Positions 22,714 through 49,346 of a DNA stretch of 64,000 nt are shown in pieces (the stretch's first letter is position 1; each line of letters opens with the position of its first letter). A model generated the notes under the pieces. The model searched no databases, was not told the DNA's origin, and saw only the letters and a program-made list of their open reading frames with translations. The DNA is taken from the IMG/VR virus record IMGVR_UViG_3300045988_103986, positions 1 to 64,000 of that record; one strand, given 5' to 3'. This DNA comes from a virus. Made by a program: the position numbers and the translations under genes.

Positions 22714-23436
22714 TTAAGCCTGCGCAAGGTAGCGGGCGCGGATCTTATCGATTCGGCGCTGTATTGTGCTCTTGCTGGTGCCAAGGGCTGCAGCAATGGT
22801 GCGGACGGTGTGCCCGTCTGCCAGTGCGCGGACGATCCGCCGGTCGAGCTCGTCGACGGCTGCGGCCTCGATCGCGGCGCGGGTGATGGCTGAATCTTCG
22901 GGGCTGGTGATGGGGGCGGCGGTGACGCTGGGCAGCATATCAACTATACTCTGTGCGTTGTCGTCGCCGTCGTTGTTGTATCTGTTGTCTGGGATTTGGC
23001 AGCAATTCGACGTGTGGCGGTACTCGCTGCGGGCGATGACGTGCGCGGCCTGGGTGCAAGCGGCGTACAGGATATGGGACAACGGGCGCGGCTCGCCGCT
23101 CTGCTCGTTGCGGGTGAGGGCAGGGGCAACGCGGGGCCATGCGTCAGCGGCGACGGTCTGCGCGTCGTCCGGGCATTTGATCCACGCGGTATCTGCTGCG
23201 CGTCCGGTGGCCTCGGCGCGGTGCTTGACGGTCCACGACATGCGGATCAGTGCGGTAAACTGGGCTTCTCCGTCCATGTTGTCCCACTCGCGGCGGGCTG
23301 CTGTGGCGGCTTGGGCGGCTCTGTGCGCCTCTTTCAGGCAGATGGCAAACTGTGCGCGGCTGCGCGTCTCTGGGAACTCTGCGACGGTGGCGCGGTACAG
23401 GCTCCACGCCTGCCGCATGATCTGTGCTTTACTCAT
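22714..23436 (-). CDS. HTH DNA-binding protein with a sigma-70 region-4/LuxR-like C-terminus
   Basis: C-terminus DELDRRIVRALADGHTVRTIAAALGTSKSTIQRRIDKIRARYL; GC-rich codon usage unlike the flanks. Confidence 0.55.
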   Translation of the reverse strand: MSKAQIMRQAWSLYRATVAEFPETRSRAQFAICLKEAHRAAQAATAARREWDNMDGEAQFTALIRMSWTVKHRAEATGRAADTAWIKCPDDAQTVAADAWPRVAPALTRNEQSGEPRPLSHILYAACTQAAHVIARSEYRHTSNCCQIPDNRYNNDGDDNAQSIVDMLPSVTAAPITSPEDSAITRAAIEAAAVDELDRRIVRALADGHTVRTIAAALGTSKSTIQRRIDKIRARYLAQA

Positions 23437-29959: not shown

Positions 29960-30313
29960 ATGAAAAAAATTATCGCTTTGTTTCTTGCCGTTATTACTGC
30001 CGCTGCTGTCCTCTGTGCAGCACATAAGCCGATCACCACATACGCGCACACTGCGCTTATCACGGCACTGGACTATGATACCGATACCGCAACAGTCACC
30101 GGCTACTCTGGTCTAACGTGGACGTTCTCCGGCTGCGAGGACTACTGCGTCGACGATCTGGTTTCCCTCACCATGTCAGACAACGGAACCAAGGAAACTG
30201 TACTGGACGATGAAATCCTGTCCGCCACCTATGCAGGGTATCTCCCCTATTGGTACATTTATGGCGGCGACGGATATGCTGCGTTCAATGGAATTGAGAA
30301 GGCGGGAAAGTGA
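29960..30313 (+). CDS. secreted protein, 117 aa
   Basis: Start MKKIIALFLAVITAAAVLCAA (signal peptide). Confidence 0.6.
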   Translation: MKKIIALFLAVITAAAVLCAAHKPITTYAHTALITALDYDTDTATVTGYSGLTWTFSGCEDYCVDDLVSLTMSDNGTKETVLDDEILSATYAGYLPYWYIYGGDGYAAFNGIEKAGK

Positions 30314-30389
30314 TGGAGATATAGATATTCCGGACGGCATAGAGAAAATCGCAGGGAATCAAACGCTTCCCTGTTTTTTCTTTTTCTGC

Positions 30390-30425
30390 GGGACATTTTC
30401 TTTTCTCACAGTAGATATATAAGTG
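30390..30425 (+). promoter_or_regulatory. cassette box pair P7
   Basis: GGGACATTT tcttttctcaca GTAGATATATAAGTGTAAAT. Confidence 0.5.
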
Positions 30426-30471
30426 TAAATAAAAAGCCGCCCAGAGGTCACGAGGGCAGAAAGGACATAAC

Positions 30472-30744
30472 ATGGAAAGTCGCATCAGGATTAAGGCAAC
30501 AATGCCGGAGATGTACACTTTTTTCAAGGAAGAAACAGGTGTGCGATTTATGGAAATCCACGATATGCGGTATTCGTCAGATGAAATCGACCACATGCAG
30601 GCAGCCGAACGCAGCAAAACCGTATTCGAATGGCGTGTAATTCTTCGGCATCCCGGAGAAAAAACGGCACTCCGTGGTACATTTACGATTCCCGGCATAA
30701 AGAAGAAGCTGGGAAAGTTGAAAGCGGAGTGCAAAGTTTTTTGA
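30472..30744 (+). CDS. hypothetical protein, 90 aa
   Basis: AAAGGA RBS. Confidence 0.6.
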   Translation: MESRIRIKATMPEMYTFFKEETGVRFMEIHDMRYSSDEIDHMQAAERSKTVFEWRVILRHPGEKTALRGTFTIPGIKKKLGKLKAECKVF

Positions 30745-30803
30745 TACTGCATCCGATGAACGATTGCGGAGAACTACTCGCTCTTTTCTTTTTTATATTT
30801 CTC

Positions 30804-30836
30804 GGGACAAATTGAGATTTTCAGTAGATATAAAAC
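30804..30836 (+). promoter_or_regulatory. cassette box pair P8
   Basis: GGGACAAAT tgagattttca GTAGATATAAAACCAAG. Confidence 0.55.
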
Positions 30837-30875
30837 CAAGAGGACAAAACACTACAGAACATGGAGGAAATCAAA

Positions 30876-32075
30876 ATGTATTACATTATCAACCGTGAAA
30901 CAGACAAACTCGAACTTTACTTTTCGAAGGAAGAGTATCAGGCCATGCCGGACGAAACGAAGTCCACGATCAGAAGCAACTTCCTTTTCTCCCGTCGTGG
31001 CGGCTGCTGGGTAAGCCGTGCAAAGCGTCCACACCTTTCCTATGTTGAGCGCATAGCAAAAGACCTTGGTGCGGAGTATCAGGGCAAGACCGGCGAAGAA
31101 CTGACCTTCGAAGAAAAGATGGAACGGCAGGCAGACCGCGCAGCGGCCAGAGCGGAGCGCATGGACGCACGATCTGACGCAGCTGCGCAGCGCGGCGAAG
31201 CCCTGCAGAAGCCCGTCGAGAATATGCGCGGCGATATCGCGTTCTTCACGCAGCCGAACATCAACACGTCCGCAGGCCGCGCGTTCACCCGGCAGCGCGA
31301 GCGCATGTTTGCGGCGTTCGACCGTGGATTCGAAGAGTTCAAAAAATCAGAGTATTACGCCCAGCGGGCGGAAATTGCCCGCAGAACAGCAAATCTGGAA
31401 AATTCCAAGGATAAGGCATTCTGCGACCGTCGAGTGAAAGACGCGCAGAAGAACATCAAGGCCATCCAGAAAAATCTCGACCACTACCATGCCATGCTGG
31501 AATGTGACGGAATGGGAGAACAGCAGAAGCGCTTCGATGGTACGCCTATCGAGCGTGCAGAGATCGAGCGCTGGATTGAAGACACAGAAGAACGTCTGGA
31601 ATCCGAGATTTCCCGCCTCTGCTATTATCAGTCCTGCATCGACGATCTGGGCGGCGTGCAGTTCAGCAAAGAGAACATCAAGCCGGGCTACGTCGTGAAA
31701 ATCAAACATTACAACGACTGCACCGTCCTGCGAACCGGCCCGAAAAACATTATCTATCGCACCCCGAACGGATTCAATCTGACTGCCGCCTACGCCGAGA
31801 TTCTGGAAATCGTCAAAGCAGAGGAAACGATAAAGCCGACGCACCCGTTCAAGGTCGGCGAGGAATTCACCGTCAGCACCCTTCAGGCCGGTGCATGGGT
31901 TCCGGACACGTGGGAGGTCATCAAAGCCACGGTTGCAACCGTCACGTTGAAAAACCAGGCTACCGGTAAGACCGTCAACAAAAAGCCGCGAATCGGTTGG
32001 ACGAGCAGCGGAGAGAAATGGAAGATTTCAGTCGGTGAATACTCCACAGACATCTGCAAGGACCTTGAAAAGTAA
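30876..32075 (+). CDS. hypothetical protein, 399 aa, DUF3560-like central region
   Basis: ERQADRAAARAERMDARSDAAAQRGEAL...EYYAQRAEIARRTA resembles the DUF3560 helical core (from memory, weak); start MYYIINRE behind GGAGGA. Confidence 0.65.
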   Translation: MYYIINRETDKLELYFSKEEYQAMPDETKSTIRSNFLFSRRGGCWVSRAKRPHLSYVERIAKDLGAEYQGKTGEELTFEEKMERQADRAAARAERMDARSDAAAQRGEALQKPVENMRGDIAFFTQPNINTSAGRAFTRQRERMFAAFDRGFEEFKKSEYYAQRAEIARRTANLENSKDKAFCDRRVKDAQKNIKAIQKNLDHYHAMLECDGMGEQQKRFDGTPIERAEIERWIEDTEERLESEISRLCYYQSCIDDLGGVQFSKENIKPGYVVKIKHYNDCTVLRTGPKNIIYRTPNGFNLTAAYAEILEIVKAEETIKPTHPFKVGEEFTVSTLQAGAWVPDTWEVIKATVATVTLKNQATGKTVNKKPRIGWTSSGEKWKISVGEYSTDICKDLEK

Positions 32076-32092
32076 AAATATCTACCGGAGGC

Positions 32093-32126
32093 GGGACAAA
32101 GTTCCCGCTTCCGGTAGATACAAAAG
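32093..32126 (+). promoter_or_regulatory. cassette box pair P9 (sequestered in a 16-bp interrupted hairpin, 32080-32119)
   Basis: ATCTACCGGA g GCGGGA caaagt TCCCGC t TCCGGTAGAT. Confidence 0.55.
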
Positions 32127-32164
32127 CAGAACAGGAAAACCAAGAAAACTGGGAGGTACATAAA

Positions 32165-32755
32165 ATGGGTTGGACTTGGCAGTGTGCGAAATTTTACGAT
32201 AGGAAGGGTAACATCGACCGCAAAGCAGAGTGCGACGATCTGTACACATGGAACAATGAAGAAACCGGAGACAAATGCCGCGTTTTGAAGTCCGCAATGG
32301 TGGGCGCGACGTGGTACGGTGCTTGTGAGAGAACCAGACCCGGCCAGAATCCATACGTTTTCGCTGGCGTGTGCCTGACGAGCGTAGACAGCCGCGAATA
32401 CTACAACTTTGGTTACAAGGACATGGATGAATCTATGGGGCCGTGTGAACGTGAGTGCCCGGTCTCCATCCTGAAACTGCTTTCCGCACGCGATGACAAA
32501 TGGGCGATTGAGTGGCGTGCAGCCTGCCGGGAGAACGCAGCGAAAAAGTCTGCTGCCAAGAAAGACCCGAACAGCCTGCAAAATCTCCCGCTCGGTGCAA
32601 AAATCACAGTGCAGAAACGTGGCCAGGGCATCGTGCTCGAAAAAGGAAGAATCAGCAACCGTAAGAATCCGGTATGGATTTCGCGGGCTGAGAATGTGTA
32701 CTATCCTCTGTCCCACATCAAGCGGTACGGCTACACACTCTGCAATCCAGCCTAA
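32165..32755 (+). CDS. hypothetical protein, 196 aa
   Basis: GGGAGG RBS; conserved-looking core YYNFGYKDMDESMGPCERECPVSILKLL. Confidence 0.65.
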   Translation: MGWTWQCAKFYDRKGNIDRKAECDDLYTWNNEETGDKCRVLKSAMVGATWYGACERTRPGQNPYVFAGVCLTSVDSREYYNFGYKDMDESMGPCERECPVSILKLLSARDDKWAIEWRAACRENAAKKSAAKKDPNSLQNLPLGAKITVQKRGQGIVLEKGRISNRKNPVWISRAENVYYPLSHIKRYGYTLCNPA

Positions 32756-32821
32756 ATTTCCAAGTCATGTAGAAATTTCAGAATCCACATGTTAGAATGG
32801 GATGAGATTGGGGGGTTGCCG

Positions 32822-33052
32822 ATGTTCTACAAAGCCGGCGAGTACCGGATAAACCAAGAAAACGAATTTATTTCCGCCTCGACTGGATTGCCGCTGAAAC
32901 CAGGCGATCTGGTGGCGCTGGAGGCTTTCTGTGACGCGAATGATATTTCGCCGATAAAATCCTATGGGAGGAAAATCGTTTCACAGAACCGCGAGGTAGT
33001 CGTTGTGAACGGTGTGAAGAAGCTGTACAAATCTGCCGTTGTTCAGATTTGA
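32822..33052 (+). CDS. hypothetical protein, 76 aa
   Basis: Start MFYKAGEY after the G-rich tract; start uncertain (alternative at 32789). Confidence 0.45.
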   Translation: MFYKAGEYRINQENEFISASTGLPLKPGDLVALEAFCDANDISPIKSYGRKIVSQNREVVVVNGVKKLYKSAVVQI

Positions 33053-33060
33053 ATCATCTT

Positions 33061-33221
33061 CGTGAGGTCACGAAATAGATTGCAAGCAGGTTGCAAGTTG
33101 GTTGCAACATTCCAAGCGGTAATAGGAAAATAGCACGCGAAACGCACGGAAAACACACGAAAAACGCACGCAAGTTGTAAGCAAGTTGTAAGCAAGTTAC
33201 CATTTCCGCGAGGTCACGAAA
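33061..33221 (+). repeat. repeat-dense intergenic block
   Basis: Flanking copies of GAGGTCACGAAA (33064, 33210; the first lies within palindrome CGTGAggTCACG). Internal repeats: TTGCAAG x3, CGCACG(G)AAAA x4, GTTGTAAGCAA x2-3. Confidence 0.75.
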
Positions 33222-33236
33222 ATGGTTGAGAACCAA

Positions 33237-33278
33237 GAAAACCAGAGCCATCCACGTTCGGACGGTTCTGGTTTTTTG
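33237..33278 (+). terminator. rho-independent terminator
   Basis: AAACCAGA ...20 nt... TCTGGTTTTTT. Confidence 0.5.
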
Positions 33279-33289
33279 TTTGGAAATGC

Positions 33290-33322
33290 GGGACAAATGC
33301 GGATCTTGCGTAGAAATACAAG
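33290..33322 (+). promoter_or_regulatory. cassette box pair P10 (orphan: faces the 3' end of an opposite-strand gene)
   Basis: GGGACAAAT gcggatcttgc GTAGAAATACAAG. The next + strand start is >1.6 kb away. Confidence 0.5.
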
Positions 33323-33333
33323 CAGGCAAAACA

Positions 33334-34857
33334 TTAAGTGCCCCGCATTTTCATGCTCTCACGATATTGCTCGGCATCCGGCAAATACTTAAAGTCCACT
33401 GTTTTGTCATAGTTTTCTCGGACGACTTGCTCGATTTCCTTTAGGCTTACATGAAAAAATTCTTTTCTCCCATTCACCATATTGACCCGTTTGTCCGCAA
33501 AGGCATTGTGAAGCGCTGTTTCCAGTTTCGGAGCATCATCTGAGAAAATCAGCGCATGAATATCGAATCTAAACGGAACCGATGCGCCTCCGAGTTCGTC
33601 AATTCGGTCTTTCGGTTCTAAGCGTCTGGTCATACCTATTTTGTAGACACCTTCACCGAATGCCCCGATGTTCGATATCACATAGACGTACCCGGCTCTC
33701 TCATTTGCAGCGCGATAATCCACATCCTTTAGCGCCTTCTCCAAATCAGAAATCTCTCCATTGACGGCCTCAATTTTTTCTTGGATAAGCTTCTTCCGCT
33801 CGTCATTCGATTCGCTTTCCATTTGCTCATTCAGGCGCTGCATAAGGTTCTCGTAGTGAATATGTTCTTTTTCGATTCGTCTACGTTCTTCTTCGATTTC
33901 CTTTTGTACTTTGAGATTTTCACGTTCAATTTCTCGTTGCTCGCGCGCACGTTCTTTTTCTTCCTGCTTCTTGCGTGCGTATTCATACGCAAGGGCAAGC
34001 TCCTTGTGTTTAAGCTCCAAAAACTCAAAGGATATTTGAATGGCATTCACAGCATTTATCCCGTTGATTTTTTTGTAAATCTGGTCTATCCGTTTTTTCA
34101 TGCTATCAAAATTGTTGAATTTCACTTTGTCGATAGCATTTTCACACTCTGTATTAAAGGACAAAAGCGCAGATTTTATGTTGTCTTCAATCATCTTTCT
34201 GCCCTGTGACAGACTTCCATTTACCTTCCACTGCGTGGAACAATTTGCCGCGACGCCTAACCGTATCATTCGCTTTTGATTCTCACGGCAGTTTTGCAGC
34301 TCTGCTTTGTATTCCTCTGACGACGCAAAGTCGTACATCGGCTTATAGAGGCCAAATTCCTGCATCAGTTTTTCATCTTCAAGTTCTACGACCGCCTCTC
34401 GCAGTTCTGCCCCTTTGCCAGCAAGTTTTTCGATTTCTTTCTGTCTTTGCAAAATGTCGTGTTCAAGTCGAGATTCTTCATTTTTGAGAATTGCAATGTG
34501 TTCTTTCGCAGCAATGATCTGGCCGTGTTCATCGGTAAAAGCATTTTCATAAAACGCCTTGTCTTGTTGTAAGGACGCGACACTACTCTGCAGTGCCGAT
34601 ATTTCCGAACTCTGGGAATCTGAACGTTCCTGTAGTTTTTTGCGCTCCATCTCAGATTTCTTTAAAGCCAACGTCAAATCAGCGCACTCTTTGGCTTGTC
34701 TGGAAACTTCTTGTAACAAGTGTTTTTTCTGCTGGGACGCCTGATTGAGTGATTCAGATAACTCCGCGACTTTTCTTCTTAACTCGTCAGCTTCTTTCTG
34801 TTTCGCTGCAAGGTTGTCCTTTAACTCTTGTACTCTGAATAAATCCGTAACTCCCAT
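33334..34857 (-). CDS. coiled-coil DUF4041 protein with a C-terminal T5orf172/GIY-YIG-like nuclease domain
   Basis: N-terminal heptad-rich 160 aa. DUF4041-like core GLYKPMYDFASSEEYKAELQNCRENQKRMI. C-terminus GYVYVISNIGAFGEGVYKIGMTRRLEPKDRIDELG...FRFDIHALIFSDDAPKLETALHNAF. AT-rich relative to neighbours. Confidence 0.8.
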   Translation of the reverse strand: MGVTDLFRVQELKDNLAAKQKEADELRRKVAELSESLNQASQQKKHLLQEVSRQAKECADLTLALKKSEMERKKLQERSDSQSSEISALQSSVASLQQDKAFYENAFTDEHGQIIAAKEHIAILKNEESRLEHDILQRQKEIEKLAGKGAELREAVVELEDEKLMQEFGLYKPMYDFASSEEYKAELQNCRENQKRMIRLGVAANCSTQWKVNGSLSQGRKMIEDNIKSALLSFNTECENAIDKVKFNNFDSMKKRIDQIYKKINGINAVNAIQISFEFLELKHKELALAYEYARKKQEEKERAREQREIERENLKVQKEIEEERRRIEKEHIHYENLMQRLNEQMESESNDERKKLIQEKIEAVNGEISDLEKALKDVDYRAANERAGYVYVISNIGAFGEGVYKIGMTRRLEPKDRIDELGGASVPFRFDIHALIFSDDAPKLETALHNAFADKRVNMVNGRKEFFHVSLKEIEQVVRENYDKTVDFKYLPDAEQYRESMKMRGT

Positions 34858-34894
34858 TTCACATCAGCCTCATCAAATTATAATAAAAGTATAT

Positions 34895-34923
34895 TGACAG
34901 CATCATTTTATTATGCTATTATT
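34895..34923 (+). promoter_or_regulatory. canonical sigma-A promoter
   Basis: TTGACA - 17 nt - TATTAT, 22 nt upstream of the RHH start. Confidence 0.7.
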
Positions 34924-34945
34924 ATGCTTGAAAGGAGGATATTGC

Positions 34946-35104
34946 ATGGCACGACCGAAAGAGAACACTGAGCGGATAACCGTTTTCTTCCCGGCGGATG
35001 CACTTGAAAAAATGAAGGAAGAAGCTAAACGCCGTGGAATGACCGTAAGCGGATACGTTCGTTTTGCAGTTCTTGAATATCTCCGTGAAAGCCGAGATAA
35101 ATAA
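34946..35104 (+). CDS. ribbon-helix-helix (CopG-like) protein, 52 aa
   Basis: MARPKENTERITVFFPADALEKMKEEAKRRGMTVSGYVRFAVLEYL; AAGGAGGA RBS. Confidence 0.7.
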   Translation: MARPKENTERITVFFPADALEKMKEEAKRRGMTVSGYVRFAVLEYLRESRDK

Positions 35105-35199
35105 AAAATCGAGCAACCGTAGCTAAGTTTGGCGACCCACTACGATTGCTCTTGTGCCAAAACCGCAGGGGTTTTGTCTATTCAAGTATAGACGAAGCG

Positions 35200-35228
35200 C
35201 CCTGTAAAAGTCAAGCACTTTTACAGGG
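35200..35228 (+). terminator. 12-bp-stem hairpin, terminator-like
   Basis: CCCTGTAAAAGT caagc ACTTTTACAGGG followed by a T-rich stretch. Confidence 0.5.
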
Positions 35229-35315
35229 ATTTCTATACCCTTTTTCAGGAATTTCAGAATAGTTTTAAAAGCATCCGCAGCCCCTACAAATTTCGAACAT
35301 TTCGCCTATAAACGG

Positions 35316-35361
35316 TATGACCTAATTCATTTGGAGGCCGAACTATACTGAAATTAGATGG
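35316..35361 (+). promoter_or_regulatory. module-start element, copy 3
   Basis: TATGACCTAATTCATTTGGAGGCCGAACTATACTGAAATTAGATGG. Confidence 0.55.
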
Positions 35362-35395
35362 GTATTGCCACCAAACACGATTAAAGGAGAAAAAT

Positions 35396-36223
35396 ATGAG
35401 CTATTTAGAAACGATCAACAACACCAATATCGCAATCAAAGAGTATCAGGGGCAGCGCGTCGTCACGTTCAAGGATGTTGACACAGTGCATGGAAGACCG
35501 GATGGAACCGCGCGGAAGCGTTTCAATGACAACCGTGAACACTTCATCGAAGGCGAAGATTTCTTCAAAGTTAAGTGTTCTGAGGTGCGTCCGTTTTTCG
35601 GACAGACCCCGCCGAACGGTTTTAACCCCGATGCAGACATTGTTCTCGTGACTGAATCTGGCTACCTCATGCTTTCGAAGTCCTTTACAGACGATAAAGC
35701 TTGGCAGGTACAGCGGCAGCTTGTGAAGGGTTACTTCCGGGCAAAAGAAGCCGTGCAGCTCTCCCCTGCCGAACAGCTGCTTGCGCAGGCGCAGCTCATG
35801 GTCGAGCAGGAGCGTCGGATCAAGGCTCTGGAAGCCAGTAACGCCGAAAACGCACGGGCAATGGAGACGGTCAAAGACGCCATCGACATCATGGTAGCGC
35901 CGCCCGTAACGGCTGGCAACTGGCAGAGCCAGATGAACCGGAACGTCCGCGCATTCTGTATGCAGACGGGCCTCGACTTCCACGAAACGTTCAGACAGCT
36001 TTATGCGGAACTGGAAGTATCGGCCGGTGTCAAGCTTGGTGTCCGCGTTAAGTTCGCACGCCAGCGTCTGCAGGTCAACGGCGCAACACAGACCGAGATC
36101 GCGGCCGTCTCAAAACTCAGCATTGTCGCGCAGGACAAGAAACTGCGAGAGATTTTCAACAGCCTGTACAACCGTATGGTTGCCAGATACACAATCAATA
36201 CGGACAGAACACAGAATCGTTAA
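35396..36223 (+). CDS. ORF6N-domain antirepressor-like protein
   Basis: IKEYQGQRVVTFKDVDTVHGRPDGTARKRFNDNREHFIEGEDFFKV. Confidence 0.75.
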   Translation: MSYLETINNTNIAIKEYQGQRVVTFKDVDTVHGRPDGTARKRFNDNREHFIEGEDFFKVKCSEVRPFFGQTPPNGFNPDADIVLVTESGYLMLSKSFTDDKAWQVQRQLVKGYFRAKEAVQLSPAEQLLAQAQLMVEQERRIKALEASNAENARAMETVKDAIDIMVAPPVTAGNWQSQMNRNVRAFCMQTGLDFHETFRQLYAELEVSAGVKLGVRVKFARQRLQVNGATQTEIAAVSKLSIVAQDKKLREIFNSLYNRMVARYTINTDRTQNR

Positions 36224-36236
36224 AGGAGGTAAAAAC

Positions 36237-36800
36237 ATGGCAGAAAGACGCATGTTTGCAAAATGCGTTGTTCAATCCGCACAGTTTCTGAAAATGCCGG
36301 TCGCGGCCCGGCTTTTGTATTACGACCTTGGCATGGCCGCTGATGACGATGGCGTCGTCGAAGCATTCACCGTACTTCGTACAACGGGCGCGTCCAAAGA
36401 CGATTTGATGACCCTCGCAAGCAAGAAATTCGTTCAGGTCATAAACGATGATCTAGTTACGGTCATCCTTGACTGGAAACGAAACAACCAAATCCGTAAA
36501 GATCGATACCGCCCTAGCATTTACCGAGACCTGCTTTCTTCGCTTGGAGCGGTCGTAGAGGAGTCAGTTGTAACAGAGGAAAACGAAGAACGAGAGAAAA
36601 CAGAAAAATGCCCATTCTGCGGTGGTGACGCATATTTGCATTTTGCGCAAAGCCGTTATCTCTTCGTCAAATGCGACGTCTGTGGCGCAACCGGAAAATC
36701 GTATTATCAGAACCTGACAACAGAAGAAATGGACACCGGCGAATGGGTGAAGACAACAGCCGCTGTCAGTGCAGTTCGCGCTTGGAATCGGAGGAACTGA
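36237..36800 (+). CDS. second replisome-organizer N-domain protein fused to a Lar-like zinc ribbon
   Basis: MAERRMFAKCVVQSAQFLKMPVAARLLYYDLGMAADDDGVV...DWKRNNQIRKDRY, then CPFCGGDAYL...CDVCG. Confidence 0.75.
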   Translation: MAERRMFAKCVVQSAQFLKMPVAARLLYYDLGMAADDDGVVEAFTVLRTTGASKDDLMTLASKKFVQVINDDLVTVILDWKRNNQIRKDRYRPSIYRDLLSSLGAVVEESVVTEENEEREKTEKCPFCGGDAYLHFAQSRYLFVKCDVCGATGKSYYQNLTTEEMDTGEWVKTTAAVSAVRAWNRRN

Positions 36801-36801
36801 A

Positions 36802-37746
36802 ATGGAAGAAGAGAAGAAAGCATTTTTGCTTTACCATGAGGGTATCGACGATATCCTCACCCTTCCAAGGGAAAGCGCCGGTGCAGTCATTCAGGCGATT
36901 TACGTCTACGTGAACACCGGCGCACTGCCGAAAGACTTTACCCCGCTTGAAGAAATGGTTTTCCGGCATATGCGTCAAGGGATAGACCGCAATGCGGAGA
37001 AGTGGGAGCGCGAACGAAAGAAGCGGCAGGACAGAGCCAGAAACGCGGCCAACGCCAAGTGGAAGAAGTTCGCAGAGGAACACGGGACAACCACTGACGA
37101 ACTGCAGCGCCTTATGGACACAGCTGCTAAAGCATGCAATAGCATGCAACCGCAGAATGAACCATGCTATAGCATACCAGAGCATAACAATGAATGCGCA
37201 AGCACGCCAAAGCAGGATATTTTATGCCAAAGCATGCACGAGCAGATTAAGCATAACACAGAAAAAAATAATTCTGCTAATAAAGTAAATGTAAGTGTAA
37301 ATGTACCTGTAAGTGTAAGTGGTAATGGTAGTGTACCTGTTAGTGGTAGTGTACCTGTAAGTGTAAGTGCCAATGATCCTGTACCTGTTAAAGAAGAAGT
37401 GGGAGTGGAAAAGGGAAAGGAAGAGGGTGCAGGGGGAAACCATTGGGAAGAACCGCGTCCTTCGCGTGCTGCGCCGATGTTGCGTATGAACGCCGTGATC
37501 GTACCTGACGAACCGCCGAAGTCGAAGGACGGGTTGGTTTTTGGAAGCGAAGATTATATCCGGATATTTAACGAAGAGTCCGACCGGTTTGCTCTGCCGG
37601 GAGAGAAGCCGCGCTATTTTGCCGACTTGACCGGTCCAATGCTGGTCAACCTCGAACGCTGCGAGCAATCCAGGCTGCAGAGTGGCCGTCCGAAGGAACG
37701 GTCTTCCCTTGTGAGAGATGAACTGATCGCACATGGTTTTTGGTGA
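36802..37746 (+). CDS. DUF6291-like protein with a low-complexity V/S/P/N repeat
   Basis: FLLYHEGIDDILTLPRESAGAVIQAIYVYV...RNAEKWERERKKRQDRARNAANAKW. A GTAAGTGTA/GTACCTGT DNA repeat at 37290-37390 encodes VNVSVNVPVSVSGNGSVPVSGSVPVSVS. Confidence 0.6.
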   Translation: MEEEKKAFLLYHEGIDDILTLPRESAGAVIQAIYVYVNTGALPKDFTPLEEMVFRHMRQGIDRNAEKWERERKKRQDRARNAANAKWKKFAEEHGTTTDELQRLMDTAAKACNSMQPQNEPCYSIPEHNNECASTPKQDILCQSMHEQIKHNTEKNNSANKVNVSVNVPVSVSGNGSVPVSGSVPVSVSANDPVPVKEEVGVEKGKEEGAGGNHWEEPRPSRAAPMLRMNAVIVPDEPPKSKDGLVFGSEDYIRIFNEESDRFALPGEKPRYFADLTGPMLVNLERCEQSRLQSGRPKERSSLVRDELIAHGFW

Positions 37747-37763
37747 GAAGGAGGTTTTGCGCC

Positions 37764-38135
37764 ATGAACAACAATGAAATTCAGAAGGAGTTGTCCCGTC
37801 TGACGAAGCGCTATGCAGATGTCGGGGCCACAGAAGAAAAAGTCCTTGAACTGTTCGAGGCAATGAAAATCCGTTTCGCTGGTCGAGGCGACGAAGCTGC
37901 CGTGCTGGGTGTCCGTATGTCGCTGGGCGAGTATTTCCACCGGGAGGAAATTTTCTCCCTCGATGATGTCTGCTGCATGGTCGCACGACCGAAAGAGGAA
38001 GTCATTGCACACATAATCGCGATGGGGCCAGAGGTCATGCGCAGGCACATTGTCACCGTAGAGCCGTCGCCATATTTGGTCGAATACCTCAAGCGAAAGC
38101 ACGAACGCGAAAACCGGCAGGACGGCCAGCAATGA
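37764..38135 (+). CDS. hypothetical protein, 123 aa
   Basis: Start MNNNEIQKE behind AAGGAGG. Confidence 0.6.
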   Translation: MNNNEIQKELSRLTKRYADVGATEEKVLELFEAMKIRFAGRGDEAAVLGVRMSLGEYFHREEIFSLDDVCCMVARPKEEVIAHIIAMGPEVMRRHIVTVEPSPYLVEYLKRKHERENRQDGQQ

Positions 38136-38160
38136 TGTTTCCAAAAAGTGCAGAACCCGT

Positions 38161-38193
38161 GGGACAAATTTGGATTTTGTGTAGAAACACAAA
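38161..38193 (+). promoter_or_regulatory. cassette box pair P11 (no gene directly downstream; followed by hairpin GCCAC..GTGGC)
   Basis: GGGACAAAT ttggattttgt GTAGAAACACAAATAGG. Confidence 0.45.
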
Positions 38194-38251
38194 TAGGGGC
38201 CACACCGCCAAGTGGCTTTGAAAAAACTCTCCCAGACCTTAATCTTCCCTA

Positions 38252-38280
38252 TTGACTTTTGGGGCTACATGAATTATATT
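38252..38280 (+). promoter_or_regulatory. canonical sigma-A promoter overlapping an inverted repeat (operator-like)
   Basis: TTGACT - 17 nt - TATATT; CATGAAT tatattgt ATTCATG spans the -10. Confidence 0.65.
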
Positions 38281-38313
38281 GTATTCATGGGCTACAAGAA
38301 GTGAGGTGAAAAC

Positions 38314-38481
38314 ATGAGTCCACGCACTGGACGCCCGAAATCAGAGAATCCCAAATCAAACCCGCTTCACGTCCGTTTGGACGATAAGACGCTGAAAGTT
38401 CTTGACGATTACTGCGAAAGAACCGGCAAGAAGCGCACAGAAGCCATTCGGGACGGGATTCTCTTATTGGAAGGTAAATAA
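38314..38481 (+). CDS. ribbon-helix-helix (CopG-like) protein, 55 aa (below ORF-track cutoff)
   Basis: My own translation: MSPRTGRPKSENPKSNPLHVRLDDKTLKVLDDYCERTGKKRTEAIRDGILLLEGK; GAGGTG RBS. Confidence 0.65.
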   Translation: MSPRTGRPKSENPKSNPLHVRLDDKTLKVLDDYCERTGKKRTEAIRDGILLLEGK

Positions 38482-38656
38482 GAATCCCCCACGCTGTTCG
38501 ATCTTGGCGGACTGACAGCATGAGGGATGGTGTCCACATCTTGCGGAAGATGGGGAGCGTAAATATATTACTACGCTCCCCGGAAAAGGTCAACCTTTTT
38601 GCGGGGATTTTTCTGTACATATGGAGAAATCCAGGAAAAGTAAAAGGAGAAATTTT

Positions 38657-39382
38657 ATGAATGAATTGGCGAAAATTATTCCCATCAACACCGAAAACCC
38701 CGAACGAATCACGGTCTTTGCCCGTGACCTGCACGCATTCTTGGAAGTCGATACGCGCTTCAATGACTGGTTTCCCAGAATGTGCGAATTTGGTTTTGAA
38801 GAGGGAAAAGACTTTTACTCATTTTTGAGTAAAACCCAAAACGGCGGTAGACCGTCCAGAGACGCAGAACTCACTATTGATATGGCAAAAGAAATCTGCA
38901 TGTTGCAGCGCAACGAAAAGGGCAAAATCGCGCGCCGCTATTTCGTCGAACTTGAAAAGGCGTGGAACAGTCCGGAGAAGGTCATGGCGCGGGCTTTGCA
39001 GATTGCAAACAATCAGGTAAAGCAGTTACAGGCGAAAATCGAAGCCGACGCGCCCGCCGTGTTCTTCGCCGAAGCCGTAACTGGCGCGGACACAAACATC
39101 CTCATCCGTGATATGGCGAAACTGCTTGCGCAAAACGGCGCAGACATTGGTGGGAACCGTCTGTTCGAGGTTTTGCGCCGGGATGGATATCTCATCAAGT
39201 CGGGCAGCGATTACAACATGCCCACGCAAAAGGCCATGGAACTCGGCCTGTTCTTCGTAAAGGAAACGCCGCGCATTGCCAAGGAAGGAGCCGTCATTGA
39301 TCGGACGACCAAGGTAACACCGAAAGGCCAGAAATATTTTATCAACAGATACGCGCCGAAGAAAGCGCTATTGGAAAATTGA
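38657..39382 (+). CDS. AntA/KilAC-type phage antirepressor
   Basis: VFARDLHAFLEVDTRFNDWFPRMCEFGFEEGKDF...TIDMAKEICMLQRNEKGKIARRYF (AntA), then IRDMAKLLAQNGADIGGNRLFEVLR...MELGLF (KilAC). Confidence 0.85.
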   Translation: MNELAKIIPINTENPERITVFARDLHAFLEVDTRFNDWFPRMCEFGFEEGKDFYSFLSKTQNGGRPSRDAELTIDMAKEICMLQRNEKGKIARRYFVELEKAWNSPEKVMARALQIANNQVKQLQAKIEADAPAVFFAEAVTGADTNILIRDMAKLLAQNGADIGGNRLFEVLRRDGYLIKSGSDYNMPTQKAMELGLFFVKETPRIAKEGAVIDRTTKVTPKGQKYFINRYAPKKALLEN

Positions 39383-44564: not shown

Positions 44565-45653
44565 GTGGCGTTCCCAAATGGATATGAAAAGTTCCGCGAA
44601 GCGATGATTGCTTACGAAGACAACCTGAGAGCGATCGGGCGCGCAGAAACAACAATCGAAAACGAAGAGCGGATTTTCAAATACTTCTCCGGCTTCATGC
44701 TGGAAAATGGCCGGTGGGACAAGCGCGAAGAGAGTTTCATAGACATTCAGGCGTGGCGAGACCAGCTGCGGCGTGACGGGAAAAAGCCGTCGACAATTAA
44801 GCAGTATCTGAAAGTTCTGAGCAGCTTCTACAAGTTCGCCTCTTCCGCGCAGCTCGGAGACAAGCGCTGGTACGATCAGAATCCCGTTGGTGCCCTACTT
44901 TTGCCGGACACCAAAAAGCGGGACAAGCGCCCATATGACGAACTTCTCACAGACGAGCAAGTTCTTCTCCTGTGGCGGAACAATCCTCCGCAAAAGCTCA
45001 GACGGCCAGAATATTGGGAGCGGAATTACGCCATCGTCGTTCTGCTGCTGACTACAGAGATCCGCAACAGGGAGCTTCTGGCGCTCACGCCGAGCGACCT
45101 GGACTGGGAAAACTCAGAGCTGATCGTCGATCATGGCAAGGGTGATAAATACAGGTCCGTGGACTTCCCTCTCCTCGCGCAAACCGCCATGCGGATTTAT
45201 CTGAATAGTGGAATCCGACCAGAGACTGCAGGAGACCATGACCCGCTCTTTGGGACAGAGGCAACCAGAGACTTTCAGGGAGCCAACAAAGGCGCGGAGT
45301 GGCACGCAGGGACGCGACAGTGGCTCTCAAACGTGGTCCGGCGTCATGTGAAATCCGTAACCGGTGTAGATGATATCCGATCTCACGACCTGCGGCACAT
45401 CGGTGCGCGGCTTGACCTGAACAGCGGGATGAGCATTGAGGAACTGCAGTCAAAACTTGGGCATGAGTCAGTTTCAACAACACAGATCTATTCCGGCAAA
45501 CTCACCAGCCGCAAGAAGCGACGCATGACAAAGATAGTGCTGGAAGAAAAAGACCGTCAAGCTCAAAGAAATATCGAACGTTTGGAGGTTAACGGAGATA
45601 ATTTTTTCGGGCAGCTCCGGTTGAAGCAATTCCAGCAGCCGGAGACAGCGTAG
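44565..45653 (+). CDS. int: tyrosine recombinase/phage integrase (GTG start)
   Basis: N-terminal SAM-like domain; catalytic region NRELLAL...HGKGDKYR...IRSHDLRHIGA...LGHESVSTTQIY. Confidence 0.9.
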   Translation: MAFPNGYEKFREAMIAYEDNLRAIGRAETTIENEERIFKYFSGFMLENGRWDKREESFIDIQAWRDQLRRDGKKPSTIKQYLKVLSSFYKFASSAQLGDKRWYDQNPVGALLLPDTKKRDKRPYDELLTDEQVLLLWRNNPPQKLRRPEYWERNYAIVVLLLTTEIRNRELLALTPSDLDWENSELIVDHGKGDKYRSVDFPLLAQTAMRIYLNSGIRPETAGDHDPLFGTEATRDFQGANKGAEWHAGTRQWLSNVVRRHVKSVTGVDDIRSHDLRHIGARLDLNSGMSIEELQSKLGHESVSTTQIYSGKLTSRKKRRMTKIVLEEKDRQAQRNIERLEVNGDNFFGQLRLKQFQQPETA

Positions 45654-45749
45654 GCAAAACCAAGAGAACCAAGAAAACGAACAGTCAGAAGGCCAGCGGT
45701 AAAAACCAAGAAAACTAAAACTCTCCGGGTTCCGTTCAACCCGGTACAC

Positions 45750-45817
45750 GATGGGAGCAGGTGCGCGGGATAGCTCACGACCATACCGTATCGGTTCGAA
45801 TCCGATTCCCACCACCA
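45750..45817 (+). other. truncated tRNA-like element (68 nt, good T-arm/acceptor/CCA, no canonical D/anticodon arms); attP-core candidate
   Basis: GATGGGA...GCGGGATAGCTCA...ATCGGTTCGAATCCGATTCCCACCACCA, ~100 nt downstream of int. Confidence 0.45.
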
Positions 45818-46007
45818 GCCGCAGTTTTTTCATTTGTTTTCCTGCGGCACGGCATATGGCCTCCTTTCTGATAAAGAAAAGCGTCACCCACGTAAGCGCA
45901 GACGCTCGCTGGAACATGTTAGAGATTCCGGTGCTCTGATTTGAGAAGATCAGCTGTGGGTTTCGGTCAAGAGCGCACCCGAAGCCGTGTAAAACGGGGT
46001 GCAGCAC

Positions 46008-46081
46008 CCAGCATTGGTGTAGCGGTAGCACATCAGTCTTCCAAACTGAGAGCGCGAGTTCGAGTCTCGTATGCTGGTCCA
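46008..46081 (+). tRNA. tRNA-Gly (anticodon UCC)
   Basis: Hand-folded cloverleaf: acceptor CCAGCAT/ATGCTGG, D-arm GTGT-AGCGGTA-GCAC, anticodon arm TCAGT-CTTCCAA-ACTGA, T-arm GCGAG-TTCGAGT-CTCGT, encoded CCA. Confidence 0.65.
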
Positions 46082-46082
46082 T

Positions 46083-46567
46083 GCGGTAGAGTGTAGCGCA
46101 AAGAAATTTCACAAGAAGTAGCGAGGATAGGCCGTCCACCGGATTTGCAACCGGTGTGCCAGAAAACTTGCACACGCTGAAGGTAGCTATGGACTGTATC
46201 ATTTCTTCGGTCATGCGCGGCCGAGCACTCTATCGCAACCACATGGGCATTACGGCGGGCCCAGGGAAAGTTTTGAAGTTCCAAAGGCTTGGTGAAATGA
46301 TATATCCGGCCATCCGCTCAATCTGTAGGTAGTGCAAGTACGACAGATTGCGAATTTAATTAGCTGGCTCCGGCTTAATGTGTGAAAAAACGGATGCGAC
46401 CGATGCACCGGCGCAGGGCTGAAAAGTTCCGTGGTCAATTCCTCTTGGCTTCCAGACGGCTCGCTGTGAGGCGTGAAAGATGGAAGAAAAACCGGTGTGG
46501 CGACGCAGACCAACGGCGCAATGCCGCGTCTAGGCGTTGAGTAATGGCGGCTCTGGGGGCCAAGAGT
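46083..46567 (+). ncRNA. candidate structured RNA (unclassified)
   Basis: ORF-free. Long-range helices 46083-93/46226-36 and 46442-49/46559-66. Local hairpins at 46137-56, 46154-75 and 46321-48. Strand inferred from the flanking genes. Confidence 0.3.
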
Positions 46568-46596
46568 GATTGGCTGTGACAAAATGGAGGAAACTT

Positions 46597-47055
46597 ATGA
46601 ACGGAGAAATAATTCCTGTTGTTCTTCTTGGAAGTCTCTTCTTTGTACTTCCACTTGTCCTTTATGTGGAATGCGAAATCAATTGTGATGTTTTCGGTGA
46701 CGAGCACGACGGCCATGCACACCTGACTTTTGAAGAATTCTACGCTTACTATCTCATTTCCCCAAACAAATGGGATATCGATCTGGATTCGCTGTATTAC
46801 AACAGAGGGGAAGATTTCATCCGGAAAAAGGTCACGTTTCTTCGTGTCAGAGACGTCATTCGATACAGAAGGTTTGCAAAAAAACGCCACGATCAATGTC
46901 TTTGTGAATACTCTGATATTTCAAAACTTGCCATCATAAAGGGCATGAGTGAAGATGCCGGAAAACTGCAAGAGTCCGCATTGAAAGATATCGAACGAGC
47001 AACCAAAAGGTACATAGAAATCGTTCGTAGATGTGTAGAGGTGGACCAAAGATGA
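46597..47055 (+). CDS. membrane-anchored protein, 152 aa
   Basis: Start MNGEIIPVVLLGSLFFVLPLVLY behind GGAGGA. Confidence 0.6.
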   Translation: MNGEIIPVVLLGSLFFVLPLVLYVECEINCDVFGDEHDGHAHLTFEEFYAYYLISPNKWDIDLDSLYYNRGEDFIRKKVTFLRVRDVIRYRRFAKKRHDQCLCEYSDISKLAIIKGMSEDAGKLQESALKDIERATKRYIEIVRRCVEVDQR

Positions 47056-47309
47056 GTGATAATGGCACAGCGTACTGCATCAGGTGCGGTAAGAAGACAG
47101 AGTATTCGATAAAGCTTCAGCGCGTGAGGGTGAATGTTTGTGGGGTGCGTTTCAGTTATATTGAGAAGGACCCCTGTTGCACGAACTGTGGAGAAAGCGT
47201 CTACATCTCGGAAGTCGAAGATCAGAATGTTGATGCCAGAACGCTCGAATTCAACAAAGCGAGGGAAAAGCTCAGACACAAGATAGATTCAAACGGAGGT
47301 AAATCATGA
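47052..47309 (+). CDS. zinc-ribbon protein, 85 aa
   Basis: ATGA overlap; CIRCGKK...CTNCGE. Confidence 0.55.
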   Translation: MSDNGTAYCIRCGKKTEYSIKLQRVRVNVCGVRFSYIEKDPCCTNCGESVYISEVEDQNVDARTLEFNKAREKLRHKIDSNGGKS

Positions 47310-47623
47310 GTCTTAATATTCGTTACTTAACCAACGGCACAAAAAACGTCTACGTTGTTATCGACAGTCGCCCGATTACTGTCAACTGCTACGAAACGCG
47401 GGATGAGATTCCGGTTCAGATCCGGCACTATGCGCCCGAAGGAGAGCCGATGTTTGTCGGTCCTGACGGAGCGCGGCTTCTTTTCGCAATGAAGGCGCTG
47501 TATCCAGAGCTGATGTGCGAATACTGCGGAAAGCCCGGATATTCAGGTGCTGTTTGCATATTTGAATCGTGCGTCGAGCCGTGGAAAACGTGCAAGTACA
47601 GGTACACGGGGTCAGGAGCATGA
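47306..47623 (+). CDS. hypothetical protein, 105 aa
   Basis: GGAGG RBS; ATGA overlap. Confidence 0.55.
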   Translation: MSLNIRYLTNGTKNVYVVIDSRPITVNCYETRDEIPVQIRHYAPEGEPMFVGPDGARLLFAMKALYPELMCEYCGKPGYSGAVCIFESCVEPWKTCKYRYTGSGA

Positions 47624-47943
47624 ACGATATCAGGTCGGTTGATTTCAGCGACGCGCAGCTTAAATCGTTCCTGTTTGAGGTGTACAGTGCAGGATTTGAA
47701 GCCGGATATTCCCGATGTACAGACATACACACTGGTTTCAGCACATGGTATCGTAATGTAATTCAGAAAGACAATCTGCCGGTCTATGCGGCACTTGACA
47801 GTACCAACAAGGACGTGCAGAATGCGATGGATAGCGTCCTCTGTATCAATCAGATTCTGTATTCGGGCCGCTATGAGTCCATCCGGCCGCAGATTGGATT
47901 TGCAGAAAAAGTATTGAAAGATTTCATCGCCGAAAGGTGTTGA
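47620..47943 (+). CDS. hypothetical protein, 107 aa
   Basis: Start MNDIRSVDF with ATGA overlap. Confidence 0.5.
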   Translation: MNDIRSVDFSDAQLKSFLFEVYSAGFEAGYSRCTDIHTGFSTWYRNVIQKDNLPVYAALDSTNKDVQNAMDSVLCINQILYSGRYESIRPQIGFAEKVLKDFIAERC

Positions 47944-48233
47944 GATACCATCCGAGTTTGGCTAGTTCGCACAAGCGTTCCGCTGTGTAGAAAATCGGAA
48001 CCCATGAAAGTCCTCGTTGCGCTGGTACGCCAAACACAACAGCGCGGGCAAAAATCGTTGGTGAATATCGCGCGTAACACGCAACGTTGACTGCTGTTCA
48101 ATAATTCGGGAAACAGACAAAGAGCAGGCTTGGTTAAAGGCTCATAGTGCGGTGACCAGGAAACAGCCCACAAGCCCCTGCCTTTAGGCATGGGGTAAAG
48201 GGCTGCAAGTCTACTTATTGTTGGAGATGAAAC

Positions 48234-49346
48234 ATGGGATATTCCTACAAATTTAGGCTGTACCCAAATACGGAGCAGGAGAACTTAATACAGCGTACTT
48301 TCGGCTGTGCTCGATTTGTGTATAACCACTTTCTCTCTGAACGCATCACGCAGTATCGAGAAACCGGGAAATCTCCTACACGTTTTCAACAGGACAAAGA
48401 ATTGACGCAGCTGAAGAAATCGGTTGAGTGGCTGAAAGAGGTTGATGCAACCGCACTGCAATCTTCTTTGCAGAGCCTTGATGCCGCCTATCAGAACTTC
48501 TTCCGTCGAGTGAAATCCGGTGAAAAGCCAGGATTCCCACGGTTCAAGAGCAAGCATGACCACCGCAAAAGCTACAAGAGCAAAGCCGTTGGAACAAACA
48601 TCAAAGTATTGGACGGTGCGGTCCAACTGCCGAAACTCGGCAAAGTCAAATGCCGTATCAGCCGAAAGGTTGAGGGCAGAATCCTGTCTGCTACGGTATC
48701 ACAAAATCCGAGCGGCAAATACTTTGTATCGCTCTGCTGCACTGATGTGGAGATTGAGCCGCTTCCAAAGACAGGCTGTGTTATCGGCGTTGACATGGGG
48801 CTGAAAGCATTCGCAATCACGTCCGATGGAACGGAATATCCAAACCCGCGTTATTTAGCCAAGAACCAGAAGAAACTTGCCAGATTACAACGGCAACTCT
48901 CCCGAAAATCAAAGGGGAGCAACCGACGCGAGAAAGCGAGGATTCAGGTGGCGCGGTTACATGAGCACATCGCAAGCCAGCGCAGCGACATGATGCACAA
49001 GCTGTCAACGCAGCTCATCCGGGAGAACGATGTAGTCTGCATCGAAGACTTAGCACCGAAGAACATGGTCAAGAATCATCGCCTTGCGAAGTCCATCAGC
49101 GACGCATCGTGGGGCGAGTTCAGGCGGCGGCTAGAGTACAAGGCCGCGTGGTATGGAAAGAAAGTCATAGCGATAGACCGGTTCTTCCCATCCAGTCAGC
49201 TATGTTCCTGCTGCGGGTATCGGAATACCGGAACAAAGAATCTAGCGGTGCGGGAGTGGACGTGCCCCAAATGCGAAACACACCACGACAGGGACATCAA
49301 CGCCGCGAAAAACATTTTAAGTGAGGGCTTGCGCCTGTTGGCCTAG
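48234..49346 (+). CDS. tnpB: RNA-guided endonuclease TnpB
   Basis: [12 protein letters not shown]-terminus; RuvC triad contexts [23 protein letters not shown]; zinc finger CSCCG...CPKCE. Confidence 0.9.

Follow-up and report, generated by a model that had tools for sequence, protein, structure and literature searches.

The 64,000-nucleotide (nt) stretch analysed here, positions 1 to 64,000 of IMG/VR virus record IMGVR_UViG_3300045988_103986 and called the window below, raises the question of why an intact copy of a repeated promoter-like element, box pair P10, points straight into the 3' end of a minus-strand gene for a 507-amino-acid (aa) protein, and what role is played by that gene and by the small ribbon-helix-helix (RHH) gene divergent from it. 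The window would be part of a large temperate phage, or a prophage, from gut Clostridia, whose accessory/early region appears to consist in part of an array of small plus-strand gene cassettes, each with one conserved box promoter (~25.3–42.2 kb, plus one copy at 52.8 kb). The best explanation, which we consider probable, is that the 507-aa protein is a homologue of the phage-defence nuclease SNIPE (PD-lambda-1) carried as exchangeable cargo, and that the RHH protein is the Arc-like repressor of the adjoining antirepressor.

A SNIPE homologue in a variable cargo slot

The minus-strand gene and the domains of its product are located as follows.

33334–34857, minus strand: SNIPE (PD-lambda-1) homologue, 507 aa (PADLOC, Pfam, phrog_1847, BLASTP, AlphaFold2 model)
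34357–34845, minus strand: coiled coil of the SNIPE homologue, aa 5–167 (AlphaFold2 model)
34009–34176, minus strand: DUF4041, aa 228–283 (Pfam)
aa 277–384 of the same protein, minus strand: long linker helix (AlphaFold2 model)
33415–33693, minus strand: GIY-YIG/T5orf172 nuclease domain, aa 389–481 (Pfam)

The PADLOC PD-Lambda-1 profile PDLC03976 matches the protein at E 9.5e-151 and over nearly its full length (protein 66–505 against profile 36–473 of 491), and phrog_1847 matches it at E 9e-148. The complete Pfam profile of DUF4041 (PF13250, positions 1–56 of 56) is found at E 4.7e-17, and the precomputed Pfam annotation of an identical database protein names PF13250 'SNIPE'. The C-terminal domain is recognised as T5orf172 (E 7.5e-18) and as MUG113 (E 1.4e-19). 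The AlphaFold2 model (mean predicted local distance difference test score, pLDDT, of 84) contains helices 5–106 and 112–167, which together form a coiled coil of ~165 aa, followed by the DUF4041 region, helix 277–384 and an alpha/beta C-terminal domain. The long coiled coil, DUF4041-like core and C-terminal T5orf172/GIY-YIG-like domain described in a first-pass annotation of this DNA are thus borne out by Pfam and the model, and its proposal of a defence gene by the PADLOC match, a check that it had itself suggested.

PD-lambda-1 came out of a functional screen carried out in E. coli (Vassallo et al. 2022, PMC9519451) and has been renamed SNIPE, a membrane-anchored nuclease (Saxton et al. 2026, PMC13190303). 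The E. coli protein contacts DNA, and probably also the tape measure protein, through DUF4041; its GIY-YIG domain cleaves phage DNA during injection, and the E414A variant loses defence (PMC13190303). The family constitutes a single-gene, direct (non-abortive) defence (PMC13190303; single-gene and direct also in PMC9519451). A protein of Escherichia phage PhiR26_1 annotated as PD-lambda-1, whose numbering fits each of the nine residues that the SNIPE paper names, is 40% identical to the window protein over the C-terminal 352 aa (BLASTP). In the alignment via this protein, E446 of the window protein corresponds to the published catalytic E414. Among 46 aligned homologues, E446, GYVY389–392, KIG406–408, R411/R412 and N459 are invariant, and Y405 is nearly so. 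SNIPE homologues were found by tblastn in 47 cultured-phage records, PhiR26_1 among them, and are common in cultured temperate phages (e.g. CDMH1, PLE3, ES18 and Javan prophages). A Foldseek search of BFVD returned T5orf172 proteins and one phage SNIPE-like protein and nothing else; a profile search against PDB sequences gave coiled-coil noise only.

As in E. coli SNIPE, the variable N-terminal region, DUF4041, the long helix and the C-terminal GIY-YIG/T5orf172 nuclease follow one another in this order, the catalytic Glu is conserved, and a single gene on a temperate phage opposes the neighbouring phage genes. The window protein differs in having no transmembrane (TM) helix, in its ~165-aa coiled coil and MGxxDLF(R/K) start, and in its host, a gut Clostridia lineage. 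By its sequence, the 507-aa gene is an additional member of the SNIPE/PD-lambda-1 family, a known defence family, and belongs to its TM-less subclass. Homology suggests a single-gene, direct defence or superinfection-exclusion nuclease, in which DUF4041 would bind DNA and sense the injecting siphovirus tape-measure complex, and the C-terminal GIY-YIG domain would cleave the entering DNA. The variable N-terminal region may position the enzyme and set its specificity, with the coiled coil here in place of a TM helix.

The gene is richer in AT than its neighbours, as had been noticed at first sight: its GC content is 0.432 (0.459 at third codon positions), compared with 0.49–0.54 (0.50–0.67) for the plus-strand neighbours. 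The RHH gene (0.459) and the intergenic stretch 35105–35395 (0.409) are also low in GC.

To collect relatives of the locus, three proteins served as queries (the nuclease, the antirepressor and the 196-aa protein encoded upstream), and the loci obtained were mapped with tblastn and scans for motifs. Some 30 related IMG/VR contigs share the flanks, i.e. the genes for proteins of 404, 196 and 87 aa on the left and the antirepressor genes on the right, and vary in the content between them. The classes are listed below, with the related loci given by L-numbers.

Class a (window, L001, L011, L012): SNIPE-A
Class b (L013, L014): SNIPE-B, 63% identical overall, with a 98%-identical RHH
Class c (L022, L025–L028 and others): minus-strand 446-aa protein, Phage_endo_I-like plus HIRAN, with a 60%-identical RHH
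Class d (L048 4609–5376, L049 9523–10290, L053 9512–10279): plus-strand Ltp-type lipoprotein, 255 aa (Pfam Lipoprotein_Ltp, E 7.9e-31), with a P10 homologue in front
Class e (L042 type): two membrane or secreted proteins
Class f (L055): no cargo gene; the antirepressor is next, ~250–340 nt downstream of the box
Class g (L038 8160–8320, IMGVR_UViG_3300045988_115675): 1,021-bp deletion, window equivalents 33200–34220

The cargo genes of the slot are low in GC. In the aligned left junctions GCGGGACAAA is invariant, and homology stops 5–12 nt past box 2 of the box pair in all cargo types. The Ltp gene of class d begins 45 nt past a box whose spacer is homologous to the P10 spacer. The deletion of class g takes out a putative terminator (described below), P10 and the DUF4041/nuclease part of SNIPE (codons ~214 onward), so that codons 1–213 remain. 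Because the relatives carry other cargo, plus-strand genes behind the P10 homologue, or no cargo gene, the best reading is that insertion or replacement left P10 without a gene, i.e. that P10 would have lost its own gene through cargo replacement. This supports the earlier proposal of a later insertion that displaced a cassette gene, the P10 homologue being placed to drive Ltp in L048, L049 and L053. We thus picture a variable cargo slot between the 87-aa gene (32789–33052) and the RHH–antirepressor module, which in the window would have been filled by the minus-strand SNIPE homologue; this cargo would have displaced whatever P10 formerly drove, with the junction a few nt past box 2, and P10 would now face the 3' end of the gene.

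The SNIPE gene at this locus would be an ordinary prophage defence moron: syntenic relatives keep this cargo, lack it or carry another in its place, and its composition differs from that of the flanks. These features, together with the conserved borders, are shared with morons and with the defence hotspots of P2 prophages (PMC9519451). The slot of the window is different in that its left border is formed by a promoter of the phage's own cassette array, aimed head-on at the cargo.

The identity between SNIPE-A and three other alleles from this phage group rises along the protein, from 24–32% in the coiled coil to 66–74% in the DUF4041 region, 75–81% in the linker helix and 89–92% in the nuclease domain. 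This gradient, from a variable N-terminus to a conserved nuclease, matches at the sequence level the published pattern of a variable N-terminal adapter (PMC13190303).

According to a passage of PMC3952083 that cites Bebeacua et al. 2013, Ltp of phage TP-J34 belongs to a superinfection-exclusion family with the tape measure protein as target. Since the SNIPE and Ltp families both act at the DNA-injection step, at least two cargoes of the slot are of that kind. The Ltp lipoproteins occupy the same slot in sister phages and, like SNIPE, would act at injection via the tape measure protein, as that passage of PMC3952083 has it; they are unrelated surface lipoproteins with no nuclease, encoded on the plus strand and absent from the window.

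The HIRAN cargo, exemplified by L025 3726–5066 (minus strand, 446 aa), combines a Phage_endo_I-like PD-(D/E)xK nuclease with a C-terminal HIRAN domain, and further alleles occur in L049, L053, L061 and others. PADLOC recognised the HIRAN part only (PDC-M03B). As it replaces SNIPE in sister phages, this HIRAN plus endonuclease-I-like protein is a defence candidate.

The putative cassette promoter facing the SNIPE gene

The elements next to the SNIPE stop codon are the following.

33290–33316, plus strand: box pair P10, GGGACAAATGCGGATCTTGCGTAGAAA, a member of a 16-copy family; promoter activity is suggested by position and conservation
33290–33332, plus strand: P10 element including the leader, with box 1 GGGACAAA (33290–33297), box 2 GTAGAAA (33310–33316) and the first ~16 nt of the conserved leader TACAAGCAGGCAAAAC
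33238–33275, no strand assigned: 16-bp inverted repeat AAAACCAGAGCCATCC / GGACGGTTCTGGTTTT, 88% complementary with a 6-nt loop; a T-run on the plus strand and a shorter T-rich stretch on the minus strand

P10 is intact and points into the 3' end of the 507-aa gene, just as first annotated; its box 2 ends 17 nt ahead of the SNIPE stop codon (33334). A loose search of the window gave 16 copies of the box pair from 25294 to 52819 (the sites span 25294–52845), all on the plus strand, with the consensus YGGGACAAAT-N10-11-(C)GGTAGAWA-YAWARGT; a stricter pattern is expected 0 times by chance. A start codon preceded by a ribosome-binding site lies 36–59 nt 3' of 13 of the 16 copies. For two others such a start is found only farther off (126 nt for the copy at 38161 and 165 nt for that at 27733), and the copy at 33290 is the sole one with no plus-strand gene behind it. 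The final position of the -10-like box of the family is freely A, T, C or G, unlike that of sigma-A promoters. A 240-aa helix-turn-helix protein (22714–23436, minus strand) shows weak region-4-like matches (PHROGs E ~1e-3 to 7e-6; NCBIfam 1.8e-3). It is only weakly sigma-like and at most a tentative candidate for the sigma factor of the box promoters.

The inverted repeat at 33238–33275 is conserved along with the left flank in the aligned class c relatives. It is likely the terminator of the upstream plus-strand gene 32789–33052 and possibly also terminates the SNIPE transcript.

Directly upstream of the putative terminator and P10 lies an iteron-like array (33052–33230) of 11-nt periodic repeats (GCAAG..GTTGCAAG, GCACGnnAAAC, GTAAGCAAGTT), which is flanked by two copies of the palindrome TTCGTGAGGTCACGAA and conserved in relatives. 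Its sequence would be compatible with a set of binding sites or with an origin-like element.

A rival to cargo replacement is that P10 was kept for a function, namely convergent (antisense) transcription over SNIPE, which would switch the nuclease off and/or read through into the RHH–antirepressor module. An intact box pair lies 11–21 nt from the SNIPE stop codon in three lineages with differing spacers (window type, L013 type and L004); in class c its distance to the HIRAN-nuclease stop codon is 17 nt. Within the window type the differences between contigs hit the spacer and not the boxes, the stretch from P10 to the RHH gene is without a strong plus-strand terminator (a weak 7-bp hairpin at 33590–33607 only), and the E. 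coli SNIPE in PhiR26_1 likewise opposes flanking early genes. The P10-bearing flank may, however, simply have been inherited in classes a and c, and a homology break right after box 2, shared by all cargo types, fits recombination at the boxes. Moreover, box 2 is mutated to ATAGAAA in one HIRAN-class lineage, the 3' end of the L049-type nuclease has no adjacent promoter, and in the phage L002, which lacks box promoters, the SNIPE 3' end is occupied by a terminator. There is also no obvious need to silence a nuclease of injected DNA during lytic growth. On balance, retention of P10 for antisense transcription seems unlikely to us, although not negligibly so.

A more elaborate form of this idea is a regulated cassette, in which a TM-less SNIPE (or the HIRAN endonuclease) would be expressed in the lysogen from the promoter region shared with RHH and shut off in the lytic phase by head-on transcription from P10. 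We hold this to be improbable. If true, a DNA-entry nuclease would be tied to an antirepressor switch of the P22 immunity I (immI) kind, and expression control or the coiled-coil mechanism, not a membrane anchor, would keep the TM-less SNIPE off the host chromosome.

The ribbon-helix-helix gene and the antirepressor

With P10 read as a promoter that lost its gene through cargo replacement, the role of the RHH gene on the other side of SNIPE has to be considered. The features of this side are given below.

34946–35104, plus strand: 52-aa ribbon-helix-helix protein (Pfam RHH_5, E 6e-9, above the curated cut-off)
34894–34922, plus strand: sigma-A-type promoter TTGACA-17-TATTAT with an upstream TG (11/12 matches)
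35396–36223, plus strand: ORF6N-type antirepressor, 275 aa (Pfam ORF6N, E 6.7e-16; PHROG anti-repressor families, best E 1.9e-47)
35105–35214, minus strand: predicted small antisense RNA gene, with promoter TTGACT-18-TATACT (35214 to 35185) and a ~74-nt transcript (~35178 to 35105)
35200–35228, plus strand: terminator-like hairpin, 12 bp with a T-rich tail (dG -18, z -4.5), the loop of which holds the -35 of the minus-strand promoter

The divergent 52-aa RHH gene is present as first annotated, separated from SNIPE by an 88-nt gap. Its sigma-A promoter is also present, one nucleotide away from the coordinates originally assigned to it (34894–34922, not 34895–34923). The promoter, TTGACA(G) ... 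TGCTATTAT, is kept in each of the seven relatives aligned, regardless of which cargo lies divergent to it. The PHROG labels of the 52-aa protein are 'transcriptional repressor' and 'Arc-like repressor'. A hidden Markov model (HMM) derived from six RHH variants was run against the related loci and the window itself. In all 35 hits an antirepressor homologue lies on the same strand within 700 nt downstream (ORF6N, Phage_pRha, P22_AR_N or AntA/ANT/KilAC in Pfam). A divergent nuclease of the SNIPE or HIRAN type is found beside 21 of the 35 hits and is missing from the other 14. The window itself has a second RHH–antirepressor pair, RHH2 (38314–38481) followed by AntA/ANT (38621–39382).

The reverse search, among 78 SNIPE genes of species-representative genomes (40–59% identity, flanks of up to 5 kb), gave none with this RHH family, though the HMM is narrow and unrelated RHH families could escape it. 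P0021 (55% identity), the closest of the non-family relatives checked, has a resolvase upstream instead. Because the antirepressor follows the RHH gene in 35/35 cases, the nuclease is lacking in 14/35, and the RHH is seen at 0/78 SNIPE genes, RHH is no dedicated partner of SNIPE; judged from these gene neighbourhoods, it looks like the Arc-like partner of the antirepressor.

The first-pass annotation had instead taken the RHH protein for a small regulator or antitoxin-like partner of the nuclease, as in abortive-infection morons, and these counts speak against that. The corresponding rival, a two-gene unit in which RHH neutralises a toxic nuclease like an antitoxin or acts as its dedicated repressor (an abortive-infection or toxin–antitoxin (TA) moron), can draw on the two divergent genes lying so close together and both being low in GC, on weak RHH matches to the CopG/BrnA antitoxin families (E 1e-3 to 8e-5, below the curated cut-offs), and on the adjacency of SNIPE, RHH and antirepressor also in L002, where the RHH is very different. 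Anchor-less SNIPE is toxic in E. coli (PMC13190303), and the window homologue has no anchor. The partnership is nevertheless not kept: a 98%-identical RHH stands beside a SNIPE only 63% identical, and a 60%-identical RHH beside the unrelated HIRAN nuclease, in addition to the RHH copies that have an antirepressor and no nuclease and to the SNIPE homologues of other genomes that have no such RHH. The genes are divergent, not co-transcribed as type II TA operons are; the window pair differs from these both in its 88-nt gap and in a co-occurrence that is not conserved. Finally, PMC13190303 and PMC9519451 present the family as a direct defence that works through one gene, and its non-abortive action (PMC13190303) speaks against the abortive-infection label given at first. 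A two-gene unit is, in our estimate, quite improbable.

In Escherichia phage PhiR26_1 (L165, PV340555; 2157–4149), SNIPE lies between ren and a small open reading frame (ORF) plus a Rha gene, opposite to both; the small ORF beside this SNIPE is not an RHH. In Clostridium phage CDMH1 (L166, 555–4580), the homologue gp42 stands beside an integrase, with a pair of Arc-like repressor and antirepressor ~1.5 kb off.

Downstream of the RHH gene, the predicted ~74-nt RNA folds into a 5' hairpin and a 13-bp terminator hairpin followed by a U-run (dG -29.5 kcal/mol, z -4.6) and is convergent with the RHH transcript. Sequence-divergent versions in L025 (5302–5420) and L002 (5672–5765) fold alike, and a further predicted copy lies at ~38482–38600 (minus strand) in the window. 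The folds were computed on single sequences; the RHH-downstream types align poorly with each other, and consensus folding across types was messy. A promoter of the form TTGACN-17/18-TAnnnT, with the end of its -10 located 72–88 nt from the RHH stop codon, was found in 19 of 26 distinct RHH-downstream regions, RHH2 included (mean of shuffled sequences 0.12, maximum 2), a count that is not a probability because the regions are related to one another. In the plus-strand hairpin at 35200–35228, pairing is preserved by compensatory changes in relatives. Rfam gave no match at E <= 1 for 32500–36000.

The RHH gene, the predicted RNA and the antirepressor together resemble, in layout only, the immunity I region of phage P22 (arc, sar, ant). 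In P22 this region (mnt, arc, sar and ant) is located within a variable 'ant moron', to which the exclusion gene sieA belongs as well (PMC2629481). The small RHH repressor gene directly upstream of a co-oriented antirepressor gene, the predicted convergent small-RNA promoter between the two, and a gene which, by homology, would block superinfecting DNA entry in the same variable region are the common points. In contrast to P22, the window has no second, divergent RHH (Mnt), and the nuclease occupies the divergent position; its RHH resembles Arc at the family level only (PHROG E 4.5e-4), and the predicted RNA covers the 3' region of RHH, the point of comparison in P22 being the antirepressor ribosome-binding site. 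We therefore see in the 52-aa RHH a putative Arc-like repressor of the adjoining antirepressor module, which would be immI-like and include a predicted sar-like antisense RNA. As the RHH promoter region abuts the start of SNIPE, RHH may incidentally control SNIPE expression as well.

Weight of the reading and further features of the window

That the 507-aa gene is no defence gene, being instead a homing-type or DNA-processing GIY-YIG nuclease of the phage itself or an inactive remnant, is highly improbable: T5orf172/GIY-YIG domains do occur in many viral proteins of other function and one relative carries a truncated SNIPE copy, but the PD-lambda-1 profile is matched full length with the DUF4041 plus nuclease architecture intact, every catalytic and invariant residue is kept, the ORF is intact and 99.8–100% identical in the other contigs with the full-length allele, and the alternative cargo of the slot includes the known superinfection-exclusion family Ltp (PMC3952083).

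Several observations nevertheless weigh against the picture of a SNIPE homologue as exchangeable cargo next to an independent antirepressor module. The window protein has no TM segment (maximum 19-residue Kyte-Doolittle mean 0.88, compared with ~3 in TM-bearing homologues). The E. coli protein carries an N-terminal TM anchor, as do 66% of the homologues, and for the TM-less ones (34%) other membrane-targeting features have been proposed (PMC13190303); because a third of the family, as given by this figure, falls in the TM-less class, the missing segment does not bar membership. E. coli SNIPE without its TM helix is, moreover, toxic (PMC13190303), and the window protein would therefore have another membrane-targeting feature or a different control. 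The motif MGxxD(L/I)F(K/R) is common to the N-termini of most close relatives, but its window form, considered as a membrane-binding amphipathic helix, is unsupported, with a hydrophobic moment of 0.41 at best, lower than that of many internal segments. A Foldseek search of the PDB had no hit at E <= 0.001; Slx1 (GIY-YIG) came up at a non-significant E of 0.4–1. SNIPE also repeatedly adjoins RHH/antirepressor modules (in L002 with a very divergent RHH; in PhiR26_1 near a Rha gene), so that some functional tie to the module is conceivable.

The promoter scan, too, gave no convincing minus-strand SNIPE promoter in the 88-nt intergenic region 34858–34945. Two candidates were seen by eye only and are absent from the scan: a perfect minus-strand TATAAT 19 nt from the ATG, and TTTCAA-17-TAAAAT (8/12 matches), which overlaps the RHH promoter. 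If the latter site is used, RHH could repress both divergent promoters, a possibility that we regard as doubtful; it is what survives of the small-regulator proposal in the first-pass annotation.

With this locus, an uncultured phage family of gut Clostridia gains a SNIPE homologue whose assignment is clear; near-identity DNA searches with 30000–39000 against cultured phages and plasmids gave no match. The picture of the SNIPE mechanism stays unchanged. A single position is occupied interchangeably by SNIPE alleles, by a HIRAN-type nuclease or by an Ltp lipoprotein, and two of these three, SNIPE and Ltp, represent families acting on incoming phage DNA; the slot thereby points to the HIRAN plus endonuclease-I-like protein as a further candidate. 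The natural allele series, with coiled coils 24–32% and nucleases ~90% identical, would be useful for probing the role of the variable N-terminus in TM-less SNIPE proteins, which the 2026 SNIPE paper addresses by prediction alone (PMC13190303). Arc/sar/Ant-like modules may be widespread in these phages.

Small ORFs ending in a hydrophobic helix and KKK/LKK (e.g. MVTYSDLIQIGILLVGICSLVLQISKKK) adjoin the slot in L013 (7873–8064), L053 (10239–10511), L048 (5336–5608) and L002 (~7575–7650), the last being faced by a sigma-A-like promoter. Their sequences could correspond to type I toxin-like or small membrane peptides. Next to the antirepressor, a 188-aa protein (36234–36800, plus strand) consists of a DnaD-like N-terminal part (PHROG 'DnaD-like helicase loader') and a C-terminal Lar-type restriction-alleviation zinc ribbon; in L001, one of the relatives, Lar is encoded by a 78-aa gene of its own. 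Between the box promoters at 42127 and 52819, the stretch 44565–50319 carries an integrase (44565–45653), an IS605-type TnpB (48234–49346) and three tRNA genes (Gly 46008, Gln 49512 and Met 50245).

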